Shown piece after piece: positions 3,369 through 34,274 of a stretch of 39,373 bases of DNA. The notes under the pieces are model-generated. The model had not been told where the DNA came from and did no database searches. It saw only the letters and a program-made list of their open reading frames with translations. The position numbers were made by a program, and so were the translations under genes. Position 1 is the stretch's first letter. Each line of letters begins with the position of its first letter. The DNA is taken from IMG/VR virus record IMGVR_UViG_2534681996_000012; one strand, given 5' to 3'. This DNA comes from a virus (Duplodnaviria > Heunggongvirae > Uroviricota > Caudoviricetes).

Positions 3369-5384
3369 TTACGCACTTCGTAATAAATGTTTAGACATAG
3401 CAGCAATACAGAAACAAGATAAGTCAGCGTAATTTACACCATACATATCCGATTCTTTATCATAAGTAACCAGAGAATAGTCTGTAGGGTTAAGATTATA
3501 TTTCTCCATAATCAGCATTACTTCTTGAGCCATACATCCGAAGTGATACTTATCAGATTCTGCATCTGTCCATTTAAACTTTATCATGCTAATGGCTAAT
3601 TCTAGCCCTGCACTATACTCTGCCGTAGATATCTCATACACATCTTTACATCTACCGTCAGATGTTTGTATTACACCATTAGTTGCAAAGACAGTTTGCC
3701 ATCTACGACTAGATTGACCACAAGTTCTTTGATTATCTATCTGGGGGGCAACACTACCATCTATACGCAAATAGTTATCTTCCGCTTGTGCGCCTCCCAT
3801 AACACCTTCTAAAAAAGGCAATCCTTTGTGATTATTTACAATGAATTTATTGGAGGTATCTTCTGATATTCCGGTGCCAGCATCTGGACCTATAAAAATA
3901 TTACCATTTCCAGTTGGTAATTTTCTTCCTGCTCTTGCTCCTATCATAACATTCAGGTCACCTGAGGATAGGGAATTGAGAGCATCAACACCAATTGCTG
4001 TATTAAAATTACCTGTGAGAGTCCCAGTGTATGGGTTCTTAGTTGATGATACTCCTCGCAATGCTCCATTACCTATAGCTGTGTTATGATCACCTTGCTT
4101 TAACTCCCTACCAGCTGCATTACCAATAAGGGTATTTCCATTACATTTATCATACCCAAGACGTACACCTTGAGGGTCTGTGTAGATGCCAGTACGCATT
4201 CCTGCAGAGCGTCCTATTGCAACATTAGCTTCTCCAGAATGGAGTTGCTGCAAAGCTGACATACCAACTGCAACATTGAACCTACCATCCTTACACTCGT
4301 TTAGCGCATCCCTGCCAATACCAATCATGTTATTTCCAGTGGTGGCTTTCTTCAAAGCATTAATACCTATACTGATAATCTCTGTTCCAGAAAATGGCGA
4401 CTTATCTGTAAGATCATCTTCTAGAGTATCTCCTGACAAACCACCCACACCAACCACGATTGTGTTAGTGCCGCTAGTTATGTTGCGACCAGAACTTGGT
4501 CCAAGCAAAACCAATTGATTACCTTTACCAGAGTCAGTGTAATTTTTTGCGGCATCATAACCTAAAATAAGGTTGCTATGAGACTGAGCTACATTGGTAA
4601 ACGGAATTCGTTCCGCTCCTGTCTCTTTAATTATTTTTCCTGGGCCATAAAATCTTCCATTAATATCTTCCGGCAATAAATACGTGCCATCAGGAACATA
4701 AACACCTTGTGGCGAAGCAGATGCCGCGGCAATGAAAGCATCTGTATCATTTGTGACTCCATCACCTTTAGCGCCAAAGTCAAGAACACTGACAGTATCC
4801 CGCATCTTATCCTGAAACGTTCTATATACCGCGCCTGAACCATACTGAATAAACCAACCAAAACCACCAACAACCCCGGCGATTGCAGCATCGACATAAT
4901 TACGCATTGAGCGATTATTTACAGCGTCCTGCTCAAGTGATGGATCTGCAAGGTTAGAAATTCTGTTTTGCTTTGCATCGTAATATTTTGCAAGCAAAGA
5001 TGGTTTCATCAATGCACGTCTGAACCACCCAAAACATTGCTGGATCAGCATCGTCAGGTAGTCAAAGGCATCTTCATGCACTTCGGGGAAAAACTTTCCC
5101 TGATTGCGAAGGTCTGTCTCCTGCACTACATCAAGCACACGATCTATCGTAATTCGCCATCCAGCAGCAAGCGGCGACGGAAGAACAACAGAACCGCCAC
5201 TATAAGTGCCCGCCCCAGTTACCGTATAACCGGTATCCAGAACCAATTCTGTTACGTTCCCGTTCAGGTCAGACACCTGAACAACCAGGTCGGATTTTTT
5301 GAAAATACGGAAGGTATACGGAAATGATGTCGTAACGCCGTTACCTGTGTATTCGTTGTGGTCAACTTCGGTTGAGACCGTCAT
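3369..5384 (-). CDS. Tail spike/fibre: T7 gp17-like N-terminal adaptor, beta-helix depolymerase-like centre, C-terminal intramolecular chaperone (peptidase S74-like)
   Basis: N-terminus MTVSTEVDHNEYTGNGVTTSFPYTFRIF...LVVQV resembles T7 tail-fibre N-terminal domain; VLDFGAKGDGVTNDTDAF beta-helix signature; C-terminal region resembles autoproteolytic chaperone domains; RBS GGAG. Confidence 0.8.
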   Translation of the reverse strand: MTVSTEVDHNEYTGNGVTTSFPYTFRIFKKSDLVVQVSDLNGNVTELVLDTGYTVTGAGTYSGGSVVLPSPLAAGWRITIDRVLDVVQETDLRNQGKFFPEVHEDAFDYLTMLIQQCFGWFRRALMKPSLLAKYYDAKQNRISNLADPSLEQDAVNNRSMRNYVDAAIAGVVGGFGWFIQYGSGAVYRTFQDKMRDTVSVLDFGAKGDGVTNDTDAFIAAASASPQGVYVPDGTYLLPEDINGRFYGPGKIIKETGAERIPFTNVAQSHSNLILGYDAAKNYTDSGKGNQLVLLGPSSGRNITSGTNTIVVGVGGLSGDTLEDDLTDKSPFSGTEIISIGINALKKATTGNNMIGIGRDALNECKDGRFNVAVGMSALQQLHSGEANVAIGRSAGMRTGIYTDPQGVRLGYDKCNGNTLIGNAAGRELKQGDHNTAIGNGALRGVSSTKNPYTGTLTGNFNTAIGVDALNSLSSGDLNVMIGARAGRKLPTGNGNIFIGPDAGTGISEDTSNKFIVNNHKGLPFLEGVMGGAQAEDNYLRIDGSVAPQIDNQRTCGQSSRRWQTVFATNGVIQTSDGRCKDVYEISTAEYSAGLELAISMIKFKWTDAESDKYHFGCMAQEVMLIMEKYNLNPTDYSLVTYDKESDMYGVNYADLSCFCIAAMSKHLLRSA

Positions 5385-5488: not shown

Positions 5489-5503
5489 TTACCTTTTAGG
5501 TAA
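5489..5503. promoter_or_regulatory. Operator-like palindrome TTACC-TTTTA-GGTAA in the tail-spike/accessory divergent region
   Basis: Perfect half-sites; 38 nt upstream of the LexA box. Confidence 0.5.
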
Positions 5504-5540
5504 TTTGCAAAACGTGCTGGATAGCAAACAAATTATTTGA

Positions 5541-5560
5541 TACTGTATAAATATACAGTT
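5541..5560 (+). promoter_or_regulatory. LexA (SOS) box
   Basis: TACTGTATAAATATACAGTT matches CTGT-N8-ACAG consensus with AT-rich centre (18/20 to TACTGTATATATATACAGTA); about 20 nt upstream of the 5581 ATG; degenerate half-box at 5470-5485. Confidence 0.8.
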
Positions 5561-5580
5561 ATTGCATGGAGAAGATTAAG

Positions 5581-5838
5581 ATGCAGCAGTATCACTATCC
5601 ACTGGAAGACGGATTTACCGAAAGGATTCACACGCCGGGAGGCGTCAAGTCACTGGTGGAGGGATCGCACTTGATGAAATTACTCCGGGATCTCGATAAG
5701 GATGGATTTAATGTCGATGGCCCACTTGCCGAACTGACTGCACTGATTAACTACGTCACCAGCTCACAGATGTCTATGCAGGATCTGCAAACACATCTCG
5801 ACTATTGTGCCGAACAATTACGAAAACAAACCAGATAA
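5581..5838 (+). CDS. Small protein sharing a C-terminal domain with the downstream Bro-N antirepressor; antirepressor-like regulator candidate
   Basis: ATG 5581 with GGAG 9 nt upstream (track start 5566 lacks RBS); IHTPGGVKSLVEGSHLMKLL...DLQTHLDYCAEQ aligns with IHSPSGVLGLTENSLLMNLL...DIQTHAEYIND of the 6152-6838 product. Confidence 0.55.
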   Translation: MQQYHYPLEDGFTERIHTPGGVKSLVEGSHLMKLLRDLDKDGFNVDGPLAELTALINYVTSSQMSMQDLQTHLDYCAEQLRKQTR

Positions 5839-5869
5839 GGTTTGCAATTGCCAAGTGGAGTGCTTATAT

Positions 5870-5884
5870 TTACCTTTGCGGTAA
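5870..5884. promoter_or_regulatory. Operator-like palindrome TTACC-TTTGC-GGTAA between the small LexA-controlled gene and the antirepressor
   Basis: Perfect half-sites; followed by hairpins and a weak terminator. Confidence 0.5.
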
Positions 5885-5978
5885 ATTTACATCGCACTCC
5901 TCTTGTGCCATAGTAATCGGGCACTGGCAAAATCCAGTGCCGGGATTGGCGTCCCGAGTTACTACAGAGGCACATATG

Positions 5979-5998
5979 CCGCATAAGCGGTTTTTTTT
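5979..5998 (+). terminator. Weak intrinsic terminator (short stem plus T8)
   Basis: CCGC-ATAA-GCGG followed by eight T; sits between the small LexA-controlled gene and the antirepressor. Confidence 0.45.
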
Positions 5999-6151
5999 AT
6001 GTGTAAAGCGCACCTATTCTATGGTGGGCTGTGTGGGGGCACCGAAAGGTGCGCCGGGTCCTTTGTAGCCGGTTACGCCAACCCTGCACAGTTCACCACC
6101 AACCGATTGGCGTCGGTAGTGGTGATTAACCTAACTACAAAGGTGATCACT

Positions 6152-6838
6152 ATGACTGCTAACGTAACCCCATCTGTTTTTCATTTTGAATCAGAAGCAA
6201 CCATTCGAGCCATTGTTATTGATGGAAATCCTTGGTTTGTTGCCAAAGACGTTATTAAAGCTCTTCAACTGACAAACCCCACTATGTCAATAAAATCTCT
6301 TGATGATGATGAAAGGGCTAAATTTAACTTAGGCCGTCAAGGCGAAACCAATATTATCAACGAGTCAGGCCTCTACACACTGATCCTCCGCTGCCGCGAT
6401 GCAGTAACACCAGGCACTATCCCCTACCGCTTTCGCAAATGGGTTACAGGTGAGGTACTTCCTCAGATCCGCCGCACCGGAAGTTACATTAAAAACTCGC
6501 TCCCGCAGGAAGAACGCATAAAGATGGTTGCCGACCAGGTAGCCAACGCCACGGCGTCAGCAGTGATGCAGGCAATGAAGATAGAGAACAAAACCTACAG
6601 CGCCCCGCTGAAGCCCGGCTACCGCAGCCTGATTCATTCTCCGTCTGGTGTTCTCGGCCTGACGGAGAACTCACTGCTGATGAATCTGCTGAACCAGTTA
6701 CAGGACGACGGGCACGACGTATCGGGCGCGGCGGCGGAGCTGACCACCATGTTCTGTTACATCGTTGGTGTGAGCAAATGCCTGCGTGATATCCAGACCC
6801 ACGCGGAGTACATCAACGACAAGGCAGGGTTCTTCTGA
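6152..6838 (+). CDS. Bro-N domain antirepressor-like protein
   Basis: N-terminal IRAIVIDGNPWFVAKDV...ESGLYTLILRC...FRKWVTGEVLPQIRRTGSY is a Bro-N signature; ATG 6152 with AAGGTGA 5 nt upstream; track extension to 5999 spans a terminator and is rejected. Confidence 0.75.
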   Translation: MTANVTPSVFHFESEATIRAIVIDGNPWFVAKDVIKALQLTNPTMSIKSLDDDERAKFNLGRQGETNIINESGLYTLILRCRDAVTPGTIPYRFRKWVTGEVLPQIRRTGSYIKNSLPQEERIKMVADQVANATASAVMQAMKIENKTYSAPLKPGYRSLIHSPSGVLGLTENSLLMNLLNQLQDDGHDVSGAAAELTTMFCYIVGVSKCLRDIQTHAEYINDKAGFF

Positions 6839-6847
6839 CGGGCGGCG

Positions 6848-6870
6848 GCACAGGGATGTGCCTTTAAAAT
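6848..6870 (+). terminator. Stem-loop after antirepressor gene
   Basis: GGCACA-GGGA-TGTGCC followed by TTTAAAAT. Confidence 0.4.
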
Positions 6871-6904
6871 AATCATTGGCGATGTGATGTAGATTCGCGT
6901 AATA

Positions 6905-6919
6905 TTACCTTAAAGGTAA
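6905..6919. promoter_or_regulatory. Operator-like palindrome TTACC-TTAAA-GGTAA upstream of the toxin/antitoxin-like pair
   Basis: Perfect half-sites, 43 nt upstream of the 6962 ATG. Confidence 0.5.
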
Positions 6920-24326: not shown

Positions 24327-24533
24327 TTACTGACCAAGCAGCGTTTTACCGCTGGTATTAGCGGTTGATGTGTCGCCCTGAGAACCGGTAAGCAGCGTAG
24401 AACTACGACCAGCAGCAGCGCGACGGCGACGTGTTTCTTCGTCGCGGGCATCAACAACGGCGGCATCCTGCTCCTGTGGTGCTGCCTGAACTTCTGGTGT
24501 TGCAGGCACTGATGGTGAGCTACCCATGCACAT
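24327..24533 (-). CDS. Hypothetical small protein upstream of portal
   Basis: ATG 24533 with GGAG 9 nt upstream; its translation-initiation region TCAATGACTCCG is duplicated in front of the portal ATG. Confidence 0.4.
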   Translation of the reverse strand: MCMGSSPSVPATPEVQAAPQEQDAAVVDARDEETRRRRAAAGRSSTLLTGSQGDTSTANTSGKTLLGQ

Positions 24534-24623
24534 ATCAATGACTCCGTACGCAATTAAATTATTACCAATTTAACCACATATGATTTATTTATCGTAGACA
24601 GTTGACATTTAACGCACGAATTA

Positions 24624-24638
24624 TTACCTTTCAGGTAA
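24624..24638 (+). promoter_or_regulatory. Operator-like palindrome TTACC-TTTCA-GGTAA downstream of a TTGACA hexamer
   Basis: TTGACA at 24602-24607; palindrome sits where a -10 element would be; upstream of tRNA-Arg. Confidence 0.5.
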
Positions 24639-24960
24639 CCAAAGAGTTCATTCCGGTTACTAACCTGACTGGCTTGTCGTTAAATTGAACAGGTGGAGTG
24701 AGCTTTTATTTTGAGCAGTACGGCGTATGGCACATGCGCCGATAGCGGTCTGGATACGTTTAAGGGGCACCCTCCCTTGCTCGGGCAAACGAACCAGGTA
24801 GCCGGAATGTGCAAGTCGAGCGGTTTTATTCCGCGCACGGGGATTCACCATCCCGGCGATTCGGTGTGACGCCTCGGAAGAGACGAGGGTACAACGATGA
24901 GAGCATTTATGGAGCCGCGACAAAGTGTGGCGCCTTAACAGGCTAAGTGCTCTCAGCGTT

Positions 24961-25037
24961 GTGGCATTAGCTCAGTTGGACAGAGCAACCGCCTTCTAAG
25001 CGGTTGGTCGCAGGTTCGAATCCTGCATGCCACGCCA
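24961..25037 (+). tRNA. tRNA-Arg (anticodon UCU)
   Basis: Cloverleaf folds by hand: acceptor GTGGCAT/ATGCCAC, D-stem GCTC/GAGC, anticodon stem ACCGC/GCGGT with loop CTTCTAA, T-arm GCAGG-TTCGAAT-CCTGC, discriminator G and encoded CCA. Confidence 0.85.
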
Positions 25038-25200
25038 GAATCACACCTGAGGACCGTGATGCCAGAAGTTCCAGGGGCTTGGCGGTGATGGTTTCCCTTG
25101 AAGGACTACCACCGCCCTTTTTACAGCAGGACGCCATTGCGATGACTTCATGCTGTAAACCAGTACAGCCACGGAAGGCGGAACTCATTGCTTCCAGTTC

Positions 25201-25225
25201 GCCCGGTTCGTCCGGGCATTTTTTT
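25201..25225 (+). terminator. Rho-independent terminator downstream of the tRNA
   Basis: GCCCGG-TTCGT-CCGGGC followed by ATTTTTTT. Confidence 0.75.
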
Positions 25226-25230
25226 GCCTG

Positions 25231-25259
25231 ATGACCACAAATTACCTTAAAGGTATAAT
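25231..25259 (+). promoter_or_regulatory. Sigma70-like promoter (ATGACC-17-TATAAT) overlapped by operator-like TTACC-TTAAA-GGTAT
   Basis: Perfect -10 TATAAT at 25254-25259; operator variant at 25242-25256. Confidence 0.55.
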
Positions 25260-25284
25260 CATGAAAAACTTTAAGGTAATTAGT

Positions 25285-26109
25285 ATGTTCGAATCGTTCA
25301 AAGAGCTGTTTTTATCTACTGCCAATACTGCCGTGCATCGAGCTAAAAACCCTGTGCTTGGTGCTTTTGTTATGTCCTGGTGCGCCTTCAACTGGAAATC
25401 ACTTCTTTATCTATTTTTTAGCAAATCAAATATAATAGATAAAATTTCATACATCTCAGATAACAGCACATGGAAAACTGTTATGTTTTATCCATGCTTA
25501 TCTGTAATTACTATCTGCTGCCTATTACCATGGGTAAACAATATCATTAACGTATGGCAAGCAAAGCCTCTTGATAATAATGACTCAATCGAAAATCACC
25601 GGAAGGCAAGAAAAATACAACGTGAAACACGGCTACAGAGATTGCTGGCTAAAAAAGACATTACTTACGAAAAAGTAAAAACAGGCGCTGAAAAAAACAT
25701 TCAAGACATGAAAGAGGAAATAATTCTTTCAAAAGACAGAATGGGACAACTCACATCTGAATTGAAAGAGAGGGAGACAGAACTGCGCGCAGAACAAGCT
25801 CGTATTTTAGAATTATCTAAGGTTATTGATGAAACAACATCTAAACTAGAAAATCTAGAAAAAGCTCACAAAAATTTAAAAAACGAATATGAGTCCTATA
25901 AGAAAAACATTCCTTTGGCAACAAATAATACAATTGCTAATGGGCTTGTAGGTCTAAAATCATTACAAGACCTTAATGAGTCCGTAAAGAAACTTGGCGT
26001 TACTGGAATTAACAATCCAGAAATCAATACATTATTGAATAATCCTCTAGTAAATATAAATGGTGGTTTAAATTCCACCTATCAAAGAAAATTAAAAACA
26101 CAAAAGTAA
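25285..26109 (+). CDS. AT-rich accessory protein: two N-terminal TM helices plus long C-terminal coiled coil
   Basis: ATG 25285 with AAGGT 7 nt upstream (track start 25231 lies upstream of the predicted promoter); hydrophobic segments VLGAFVMSWCAFNWKSLLYLFF and VMFYPCLSVITICCLLPW; K/E-rich heptad-like C-half; stop 3 nt from the convergent terL stop. Confidence 0.55.
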   Translation: MFESFKELFLSTANTAVHRAKNPVLGAFVMSWCAFNWKSLLYLFFSKSNIIDKISYISDNSTWKTVMFYPCLSVITICCLLPWVNNIINVWQAKPLDNNDSIENHRKARKIQRETRLQRLLAKKDITYEKVKTGAEKNIQDMKEEIILSKDRMGQLTSELKERETELRAEQARILELSKVIDETTSKLENLEKAHKNLKNEYESYKKNIPLATNNTIANGLVGLKSLQDLNESVKKLGVTGINNPEINTLLNNPLVNINGGLNSTYQRKLKTQK

Positions 26110-33689: not shown

Positions 33690-34274
33690 ATGAAAAGTAT
33701 CCAGGACGTCCGCAGGCAAAATCTCAACGACTTGATCGACCGTGAATTCAATGGTGTTCAGACGCGGATGGCAGAAAAACTTGGAACTCAGGCAAATCTG
33801 GTAAACCGCTGGGCTCTTGGCAAGAAGGTTATCGGCGACCAGGTTGCGCGAAAAATTGAAGCTGCCGCCAATAAACCCCGTAACTGGCTTGATATCGATC
33901 GCTCGCTTTCTCAGGAAGGTTTTCAGCCTGTCGGCCCAAGCGACATTGGTCAGCTGGCGGCTCACAACCTGGAACGCTGGATGAGCGAAAGCCGCGACCT
34001 TTCAACACAGGGAAAACTTCACCGCGCATCCGGCGTCGCCCAGGTGACAATCAGCCGCCTGTTAAACAATGAGGTCAGCGTTTCCATTTCCACCCTGGAG
34101 AATGTTGCATCCGCATTCGGGCGTCACGGCTATGAATTACTGATTCACCCGCACGACCCTGCGACCATCAACTATGACCGCTCGCGCTACGCATTGTTAC
34201 CCGAAACCGAGAAAGCAAAGATCGAAAGTTACATTGAATTTGTCATCAACCAGAACGAAAAAAACAAACAATAA
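33690..34274 (+). CDS. Prophage repressor, tandem HTH domains, no LexA-like peptidase domain
   Basis: Two XRE-type HTH-like segments (MAEKLGTQANLVNRWALGKK and LHRASGVAQVTISRLLNNE); no Ala-Gly cleavage site or Ser/Lys dyad; followed by terminator and operator-controlled promoter. Confidence 0.65.
   Translation: MKSIQDVRRQNLNDLIDREFNGVQTRMAEKLGTQANLVNRWALGKKVIGDQVARKIEAAANKPRNWLDIDRSLSQEGFQPVGPSDIGQLAAHNLERWMSESRDLSTQGKLHRASGVAQVTISRLLNNEVSVSISTLENVASAFGRHGYELLIHPHDPATINYDRSRYALLPETEKAKIESYIEFVINQNEKNKQ

Follow-up and report, generated by a model that had tools for sequence, protein, structure and literature searches.

An apparently undescribed structured RNA heads a putative repressor-controlled tRNA-Arg cassette in an epsilon15-like prophage

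The present analysis deals with a short transcription unit in a phiV10/epsilon15-like (Uetakevirus) prophage of Escherichia coli, recorded in IMG/VR as IMGVR_UViG_2534681996_000012 and analysed as one stretch of 39,373 nucleotides (nt), which is hereafter called the window. The unit contains the gene of a transfer RNA (tRNA), tRNA-Arg(UCU), and is read here, with a probability of about 0.6, as a self-contained, repressor-controlled, immediate-early non-coding RNA cassette inserted like a moron between the terminase and the head genes. The tRNA is an ordinary one, already annotated by RefSeq and in related phages; the core of the leader preceding it appears to be an undescribed and widespread family of structured RNA. 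No description of this core module was found in the literature searched. A search of the leader and trailer (24400-25400) against Rfam 15 returned nothing convincing besides the tRNA, all other matches (E-values up to 10) lying far below the gathering scores, and the same collection gave no family match for the core when confronted with the cassette of lambdoid phages or with the position of the core in phage P7.

The core RNA module and its distribution

The core module lies on the same strand as the tRNA and consists of five helices, two of which enclose hairpins of variable length, completed by a pseudoknot. Its elements, as defined by the core alignment, are the following:

24715-24893, plus strand: conserved core RNA module of ~165 nt (covariance model R1, 147 bits, E = 2e-43)
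24721-24741, plus strand: P1, a hairpin of 9 base pairs (bp)
24746-24752 with 24795-24804, plus strand: P2, which encloses a variable hairpin
24805-24814, plus strand: invariant junction GAAUGUGCAA
24815-24817 with 24855-24857, plus strand: P3, which encloses a variable hairpin and P4
24840-24843 with 24851-24854, plus strand: P4
24846-24849 with 24863-24866, plus strand: pseudoknot formed by the P4 loop CACC with a GGUG further downstream
24872-24876 with 24884-24888, plus strand: P5, with the loop GAAGAGA

Model R1 recognizes exactly one copy of the core in the window. In an alignment of 34 diverse cores, 98.7% of the base-pair cells are paired, versus 31-45% when the partners are slid against each other, and 10 pairs display compensatory changes; the covariation score amounts to 0.226 versus 0.095 for shuffled alignments, none of 500 shuffles reaching the observed value. 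The model, built without the pseudoknot, aligned 99 further copies, of which 71 are distinct, and in these 71 sequences the proportion of paired cells is 99.2%, with 11 covarying pairs. In 22 sequences the pseudoknot pair changes from C-G to A-U, and none has it broken. The unpaired nucleotides of the core are, in turn, extremely conserved among unrelated phages. Read on the opposite strand, several of the invariant or frequent G-U pairs would turn into C-A mismatches; the plus strand is therefore the functional one, as for the tRNA.

A protein-coding origin of this conservation was rejected for both strands. The cores measure 157-185 nt and fall into all three length classes modulo 3, the invariant block occurs in all three frames relative to the P4-P5 block, and no conserved reading frame was found among the core homologues on either strand. 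An earlier account of this DNA, made by a model from the letters alone (the sequence-only reading), had described about 320 nt of hairpin-dense leader lacking a convincing open reading frame (ORF), and this description holds: the segment 24637-24960 contains no conserved ORF, and the predicted transcript of 597 nt folds at z = -4.3 relative to shuffles. The 87-residue ORF at 24660-24923 (minus strand) and the annotated genes phiV10p04 and mEp460 gp37 are most likely spurious gene calls. ORFs running antisense to the tRNA or to the core occur in several records, namely at 3668-3919 of locus L001 (phiV10p04), at 2443-2811 of locus L147 (mEp460 gp37), and at 24660-24923 and 24967-25188 of the window (both minus strand); such entries in public records very probably do not correspond to real genes.

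The same observations bear on the view that the leader is nothing but the precursor sequence of the tRNA, a decayed tRNA array or a small protein gene, devoid of any function of its own. GenBank ORFs annotated across the region (phiV10p04, mEp460 gp37, Tyrion gp54) and T-arm-like remnants found further downstream in phage SPN1S could be taken in its favour. The strong covariation with its strand-specific G-U pairs, the persistence of the core without any tRNA in most loci, the lack of a consistent frame on either strand and the antisense course of phiV10p04 across the tRNA itself render this view very improbable. The leader had been proposed to be either a processed precursor or a separate small RNA (sRNA); as a passive precursor it is contradicted by a covarying module independent of the tRNA, and an RNA acting in trans is retained below as a rival.

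Homologues of the core were gathered by means of an exact 21-nt word belonging to its most conserved hairpin; a search for relatives through the neighbouring gp3 protein in GTDB genomes returned none. The word occurs in at least 120 viral contigs and in 15 genomes of Kosakonia, Citrobacter, Klebsiella, Kluyvera, Enterobacter, Escherichia and Erwinia. Among 125 unique segments, 27 possess a tRNA-Arg downstream, two a tRNA-Met/Ile immediately upstream, and the remaining 96 are devoid of tRNA; a large group of segments matches the window at 24720-24964 only, with ~82% identity. Because the core covaries and exists without tRNA in most loci (96/125), the leader is not tRNA-specific. Two finds in unexpected bacteria deserve a word: a 1.7-kb contig of a metagenome-assembled genome (MAG) labelled 'Bacillota' (L144) contains a core of full score, 160 bits, and probably represents a fragment of an enterobacterial phage that was misbinned, and the find in a Calditrichaceae MAG (L140; 22 bits only) is a chance match to the 21-nt word.

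Sensitive BLAST searches located the core in 83 phage records, among them Uetakeviruses, several Stx2 phages and other lambdoid phages (mEp460, cdtI, Ayreon), as well as P1, P7, D6, SJ46 and RCS47; its carriers belong to three unrelated groups of temperate phages (P1-like, lambdoid and epsilon15-like). It is equally present in 1839 of 5426 complete E. coli genomes (34%), at 2470 places, 554 of them on plasmids, and no annotation underlies the core among the matches listed. The five lambdoid cryptic prophages of K-12 MG1655 (CPS-53, Rac, Qin, e14 and DLP12) contain no copy, an absence that may account for the core not appearing in sRNA surveys built around K-12. On sequence grounds, the core is an independent, mobile RNA module without Rfam match.

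In all these phages the core either follows a repressor-controlled early promoter at a distance of 0-90 nt or stands immediately behind a tRNA. Promoter/operator contexts of at least six unrelated kinds were recognized, in which 0-55 nt separate a sigma-70 promoter, equipped with palindromic operators, from P1 downstream of it, and in four of them the core begins ~0-8 nt from the predicted start, i.e., with the first bases of P1. Lambdoid phages harbour the core at the PL position, in the leader directly after the cI-like repressor gene, and in P1 and P7 it directly follows a tRNA-Ile and precedes ban, inside the C1-controlled ban operon. In P1 and at locus L055 it forms the plain 5' untranslated region (UTR) of a protein gene. 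As judged from predicted promoters and operators, the common denominator of these positions is the head of a repressor-controlled early transcript.

Two side observations relate to these loci. The ban-operon leader of P1/P7 draws on the same repertoire of modules: in P7 (L145, 600-2200), a payload-type element at ~640-740, an intrinsic terminator at 762-786 and a long hairpin at ~970-1050, of the type called stem Y below, were noticed, together with near-threshold Rfam matches to tRNA-Sec (1852-1936; 46.6 versus 47 bits) and to STnc100 (2049-2164). At loci L073, L067 and L036, a hairpin and an exact rrn-type boxA, UGCUCUUUAACAA, occur within ~30 nt past P5, which suggests a nut-like site directly downstream of the core.

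Anatomy of the cassette

The elements surrounding the core in the window are organized as follows:

24553-24600, no strand assigned: AT-rich invariant block separating the cassette promoter from the divergent gp3/portal genes, containing AACCACATA
24602-24630, plus strand: sigma-70-type promoter, with the -35 hexamer TTGACA at 24602-24607, a 17-bp spacer and the -10 hexamer TACCTT at 24625-24630
24624-24638, no strand assigned: candidate operator of the phage repressor, the palindrome TTACCTTTCAGGTAA, overlapping the -10 hexamer and the start site
24642-24707, plus strand: stem X, a long hairpin of the stem-Y family (fold -22.9 kcal/mol), resembling the stem-Y hairpins of loci L030 and L062
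24891-24961, plus strand: stem Y, a long hairpin CAACG.GAGAGCAUU.. / ..AGUGCUCUC.CGUUG closing a hypervariable insert, the last pair of which uses G+1 of the tRNA
24961-25037, plus strand: tRNA-Arg(UCU) with encoded CCA (ARAGORN and Rfam), listed as tRNA-Arg in several phage records and in prophages of RefSeq
25040-25060, plus strand: small hairpin AUCAC(A/G)..CGUGAU with the loop word AGGAC, conserved in Uetakevirus trailers and recurring after the payload in lambdoid loci
25081-25122, plus strand: T1, a weaker second terminator, hairpin GGCGGUG..CACCGCC followed by CUUUUUAC (fold in the window -18.1 kcal/mol)
25120-25159, plus strand: long imperfect hairpin UUUACAGCA..UGCUGUAAA with the invariant centre ACGCCAUUGCGAUGAC, a 40-bp self-complementary match conserved within Uetakeviruses only
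25201-25225, plus strand: T2, a strong intrinsic terminator found by a simple scan, GCCCGG-TTCGT-CCGGGC followed by ATTTTTTT

The TTGACA hexamer and the operator palindrome announced ahead of the tRNA are both in place, the conserved -10 hexamer being TACCTT, 17 bp past the -35. TTGAC and TACC(T/C)T stand at a constant spacing in all relatives, and promoter and operator alike are conserved in 9 phages; the -10 hexamer matches the consensus poorly, yet T-12, A-11 and T-7 are kept. Two hexamers at a spacing of 16-18 bp, overlapped by an operator, point to a sigma-70 promoter under repressor control, from which transcription would start near 24637. The palindrome TTACCTTTCAGGTAA is a perfect copy of a motif that occurs at 16 sites of the window with at most two mismatches, versus 0.97 expected from shuffles, and the remaining sites flank an HTH_3 gene, occupy an immI-like region (5489-6919), or lie at 25242 over the promoter of the next gene. 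The HTH_3 gene, at 33690-34274, is the repressor candidate. The homologous site of epsilon15 is annotated as a repressor-binding site, and the repressor of a sibling phage, when overexpressed, blocks lytic transcription (PMC9782041). The upstream block (24553-24600, 48 bp) is identical in 9 Uetakeviruses from 4 host genera and may represent a second regulatory site, perhaps for the leftward promoter of the head genes; the word AACCACATA is repeated beside three operator regions, those of the cassette, of ~5450 and of ~31247.

The tRNA-Arg announced at 24961-25037 is confirmed as a well-folding tRNA, since ARAGORN makes a single call in the window, tRNA-Arg with anticodon tct on the plus strand at these very positions, and the Rfam tRNA model RF00005 matches with 73.3 bits, the gathering score being 29. 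Its acceptor stem was said to differ from that of E. coli argU, and the alignment bears this out: 64 of 77 positions (83%) are the same as in K-12 argU, the differences residing in the acceptor stem, the anticodon stem and the variable loop. Arginine identity depends on A20, C35, U36 and a purine at position 73. The phage tRNA retains A20, C35, U36 and G73, along with the anticodon UCU and the encoded CCA.

A tRNA so close to argU raises the question of host DNA at a prophage boundary or of an assembly artefact, all the more as many phages integrate at argU with argU fragments and the attP of epsilon34 resembles the argU 3' end. When the flanks, which the sequence-only reading had wished to see compared, were set against the K-12 argU locus, they proved unlike, the tRNA body (24967-25037) being alone alike (86%). 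Phage genes occur on both sides of the cassette, and the same cassette is present in the genomes of the isolated phages phiV10, TL-2011b, ZX5 and SPN1S. Moreover, guaA, not argU, is the integration site of this phage group (PMC9782041), and the chance that the tRNA and its flanks are of such an origin is practically negligible.

Concerning codon usage, AGA and AGG reach 6.0 and 3.8 per 1000 codons, respectively, in 30 ORFs of the window, i.e., 9.8 together and 95 of 554 arginine codons. The averages of E. coli K-12 are ~2 (AGA) and ~1 (AGG) per 1000 codons. The idea of a supply of rare-codon decoding thus survives in part: an excess over these averages exists, but it is modest and is concentrated in tail, tailspike and some early genes, the capsid, portal and terminase genes using nearly none. 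Supplementation of AGA/AGG decoding is the simplest role for the phage tRNA, plausible but modest; replacement of tRNA lost to anticodon nucleases, likewise put forward in the sequence-only reading, may be another.

The tRNA is optional in the genus, since epsilon15, Tyrion and the Klebsiella phage ST11-OXA245phi3.2 (L007) lack it. Tyrion and the Klebsiella phage retain leader and trailer, and epsilon15 retains only a remnant of the core, the P1 hairpin (40 bits), fused to the trailer. The epsilon15 deletion has left the P1 hairpin joined to the 3' half of T1 (L003 3540-3620), the junction being a direct repeat of 13 nt, UUCCCUUGAUGCU, one copy of which lies in the P2 loop and another in the T1 loop of SPN1S. 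Throughout the family, both loops share a pyrimidine-rich word, UCC(C)UU.

Two kinds of long stem occur beside the core. Stem X is optional, being present in the phiV10, Klebsiella and Tyrion types and missing from relatives of the SPN1S type, and its equivalent in epsilon15 was marked as a ribonuclease (RNase) III site by the annotators. Stem Y occurs in nearly all relatives with inserts of 46-207 nt, which in SPN1S include the T-arm-like remnants, and shows many compensatory variants, e.g., GUAGCUCACU/AGUGAGCUAC. Since its last pair uses G+1 of the tRNA, cleavage by RNase P would free the leader. A boxA of the rrn/lambda type, perceived by eye in the 3' strand of stem Y, was discarded: such words are probably not NusB/E sites because they covary with their pairing partner, and the word is absent in the Klebsiella phage (L007).

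The slot following stem Y is occupied by the tRNA-Arg or by a tRNA-like element, the latter in Uetakeviruses and lambdoid phages (L014 5080-5210; also L007, L009, L012, L025, L042 and others). The tRNA-like element combines an acceptor-like stem of 6-7 bp (GUGGUGA/UCACCAC), a directly stacked T-arm-like hairpin (GCCGG..CCGGC) and a CCA-like word at the equivalent position with a 5' hairpin with the conserved loop GGCUGA, which covaries in L012, and with a hypervariable interior; ARAGORN made no call on it.

Both T1 and T2 associate a GC-rich hairpin with a U-run, as intrinsic terminators do. A T1-type hairpin with U-run occurs in 89 of the 125 segments, typically ~360 nt past the P1 start, with covarying stems. 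The clean terminator predicted at 25201-25225 was found again as T2, and its stem covaries in relatives (GCCCGG/CCGGGC versus GCCCAC/GTGGGC); the trailer beyond T1, T2 included, is specific to Uetakeviruses.

With regard to its surroundings, the segment 24300-25225 is 98.9% identical to phiV10, TL-2011b and others, and the homology to phiV10 ends exactly at the end of T2 (25225). The cassette lies opposite to the structural genes, as had been said, but not directly between portal and terminase, its neighbours being a gene of 68 codons (24327-24533, minus strand) and a variable gene of 282 codons (25261-26109, plus strand). Nor does it belong to a late operon: it has the features of an early repressor-controlled unit set among late genes. 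Its GC content, 0.48-0.59, is no higher than that of the adjoining genes, only the promoter region being AT-rich, so that the leader does not deserve the epithet GC-rich given to it. As in a moron, a promoter and a terminator of its own, a place between conserved genes and presence/absence variation in relatives are combined; the payload is an RNA, not a protein gene.

The 282-residue product of the neighbouring gene 25261-26109 has no Pfam or defence-family match, apart from a weak coiled-coil similarity to LmuB/JetC. The gene is AT-rich (GC 0.25-0.45), differs between sibling phages, and has a good promoter of its own, ATGACC-17-TATAAT (25231-25259), overlapped by an operator copy, TTACCTTAAAGGTAT, at 25242-25256. 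Far from the cassette, the Rfam families isrK (5921-5997, 74 bits) and C4 antisense RNA (6017-6103, 79.5 bits), both on the plus strand and above their gathering scores, are next to each other and just upstream of a gene for a Bro-N antirepressor (5999-6838), with operators at 5489, 5870 and 6905 flanking them; the region resembles the immI module of P1, here in a phage of the epsilon15 type.

Possible modes of action

In the proposed course of events, the departure of the repressor from its operator (24624-24638) would allow the host sigma-70 RNA polymerase to start near 24637 and to transcribe, in this order, stem X where present, the core, stem Y, the tRNA-Arg(UCU), the small hairpin, T1 and T2. 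Cleavage by RNase P at 24960/24961 would separate the leader from the tRNA, and the long stems X and Y are plausible sites for RNase III. The tRNA might then add to the decoding of AGA/AGG in the tail, tailspike and some early genes, where their use is ~3 times that of E. coli genes. The core, for its part, may bind a conserved host component and act in cis on its own transcript, securing elongation, processing or stability in the untranslated RNA downstream.

The sequence behind the core varies from tRNA to tRNA-like RNA, ORFs or ban, and gene-specific or translational control is therefore disfavoured; this diversity leaves either a general function in cis, at the level of transcription, processing or stability, or a separate, excised RNA binding a conserved host component. 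Action in cis upon its own transcript, through such a component, is tentatively preferred, and action in trans after excision is regarded as nearly as likely.

One particular version of the cis reading makes the core an antitermination or anti-Rho RNA comparable to the put RNAs of phage HK022, which, once folded on the early transcript as it emerges, would bind RNA polymerase and allow read-through of terminators or Rho sites. The promoter-proximal position in at least six contexts, four of them with the core practically at the start, agrees with it, as do the place in the PL leader right after cI in lambdoid phages, the location within the terminator-containing, tRNA-rich ban operon of P1/P7, and the unrelated downstream sequences, which fit a general role in transcription better than a gene-specific one; putL also occupies a site shortly after PL (PMC9378689). 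Model R1, however, has no match in HK022, and a put RNA of ~70 nt with two stems differs from a 165-nt pseudoknotted core, which is present in one copy per phage with none on the PR side. The conserved T1 and T2, right after the payload, look like the intended end of the unit, and the boxA that closely follows the core in some lambdoid loci suggests that antitermination of the N/Nus type already operates there. Antitermination by the core is therefore held to be rather unlikely.

The flanking elements lend themselves to another interpretation, in which the core and its tRNA or tRNA-like payload would be excised as stable, trans-acting RNAs serving as decoy or inhibitor of some factor of the host (an RNA chaperone, an RNase or a defence nuclease directed at tRNA, for example), the tRNA-Arg then being a nuclease-resistant replacement instead of a codon supplement. 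The core is surrounded by signals suited to processing, long duplexes for RNase III and, where the tRNA begins, a site for RNase P, and the unit is self-contained from promoter to T1 in 89 of 125 loci. Its unpaired nucleotides are almost unchanged in unrelated phages, hypervariable inserts sit on conserved scaffolds (stem Y and the tRNA-like payload), a pattern which may be typical of conflict systems, and the cassette is dispensable and patchily distributed. As far as the cited account goes, a precedent exists in PARIS, a tRNA-cleaving defence system neutralised by a viral tRNA (PMC11464382). On the other side, neither a target nor a partner was identified, no defence gene is linked to the core, and in P1 and L055 the core is merely the 5' UTR of a protein gene; this interpretation, nearly on a par with the preferred one, is judged less likely than not.

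A riboswitch-type sensor, coupling phage expression to a metabolite or signal of the host, would be compatible with a structured, aptamer-like architecture located in a 5' leader, with its invariant junction nucleotides, its pseudoknot and its peripheral hairpins of variable length, and with the terminator-like hairpins that follow the core in some loci. It is nevertheless improbable, since no conserved expression platform was recognized across the 3' part of the core, the downstream sequences are unrelated between contexts, a payload that can be a tRNA excludes translational control, and no gene association points to a ligand.

Several points weigh against the picture of a repressor-controlled early cassette with an active core. 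The -10 hexamer is weak, agreeing with the consensus at 3 of 6 positions, and the start site, the early timing and the cleavages assigned to RNase P and RNase III are predictions. The cassette is dispensable for growth, because epsilon15 has lost the core and the tRNA and is still viable. The excess of AGA/AGG is small, and the presumably highly expressed capsid, portal and terminase genes make almost no use of these codons. Two conserved terminators directly after the payload are unexpected if the core promotes read-through, and a core gene acting purely in trans would be expected to possess its own terminator more often. Finally, seeding on an exact 21-nt word limited the sampled diversity to Enterobacterales.

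Taken as a whole, the core and its tRNA or tRNA-like payload may constitute an undescribed two-part RNA system of phages, switched on at the loss of the repressor and operating as an RNA-only modifier of the transcription machinery or as a tRNA-mimicking decoy, a proposal advanced here with reserve. If the core acts on transcription, it would represent a second class of RNA-only elongation control in lambdoid phages, far more widespread than put; as a decoy, it would link the tRNA genes of phages with an RNA-based counter-defence. The core is directly testable by standard genetics in lysogens of P1 or of the phiV10 type.

Comparison with known RNAs and phage systems

Some known elements were considered as possible identities of the core and set aside. 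The Pas sRNAs and STnc100 are different RNAs located in the late region, svsR is a different RNA of 77 nt lying inside the 3' end of cI, and HnrS is yet another one of 66 nt. By eye, an RfaH ops site in GGTAGCC matches at 7-8 of 12 positions with loss of the C3-G8 pair, GGA words that could make the RNA a sponge for CsrA are not consistently conserved, and a lambda boxB-like reading of the P5 loop GAAGAGA was dropped.

The putL and putR RNAs of HK022 resemble the core in being promoter-proximal structured RNAs that head repressor-controlled early transcripts of a lambdoid phage. They are RNAs of ~70 nt with two stems, putL being located just downstream of PL, and need no phage protein for their action (PMC9378689). 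They occur twice per phage, whereas the core, with ~165 nt, five helices and a pseudoknot, occurs once. Identity with put was rejected, since size and fold differ and model R1 has no match in the complete HK022 genome; the resemblance would be a functional analogy only.

Among the non-coding RNAs of prophages, DicF belongs to a repressor-controlled early operon of a lambdoid prophage, from which it is released by RNase III and RNase E. Like the core RNA, it is embedded in such an operon (dicBF of the Qin prophage), but it is a 53-nt, Hfq-dependent base-pairing sRNA with no sequence or structure in common with the core, and the Rfam DicF model has no match in the window. The C4 RNA of P1/P7 and the CI RNA of P4 are antisense RNAs cut out of leader transcripts by RNase P through tRNA mimicry. 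They represent another family at another locus, the immI-like region upstream of the Bro-N antirepressor, and the core does not possess their acceptor-like stem. GOLLD and ROOL are large ornate phage RNAs of unknown function, which often adjoin or contain tRNA genes. No Rfam match relates them to the core, which is much smaller, confined so far to Enterobacterales and tied to repressor-controlled early promoters.

The layout of the cassette finds a counterpart in the rrn operons of E. coli, where long processing stems flank a structured RNA that is followed by a tRNA and by tandem terminators; the order is alike, except that the cassette contains no rRNA. As regards the payload, trnA, trnT and trnI of P1, located in the C1-controlled ban operon, and ileZ-argN-argO of the Stx phages are likewise rare-codon tRNA genes of temperate phages expressed from a phage promoter. 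Unlike these, the tRNA of the window is single, stands in a cassette of its own from promoter to terminator, lies on the strand opposite to the late genes and is optional in the genus. In the ban operon of P1, the promoter is again controlled by a repressor, and the same core adjoins the tRNA-Ile.

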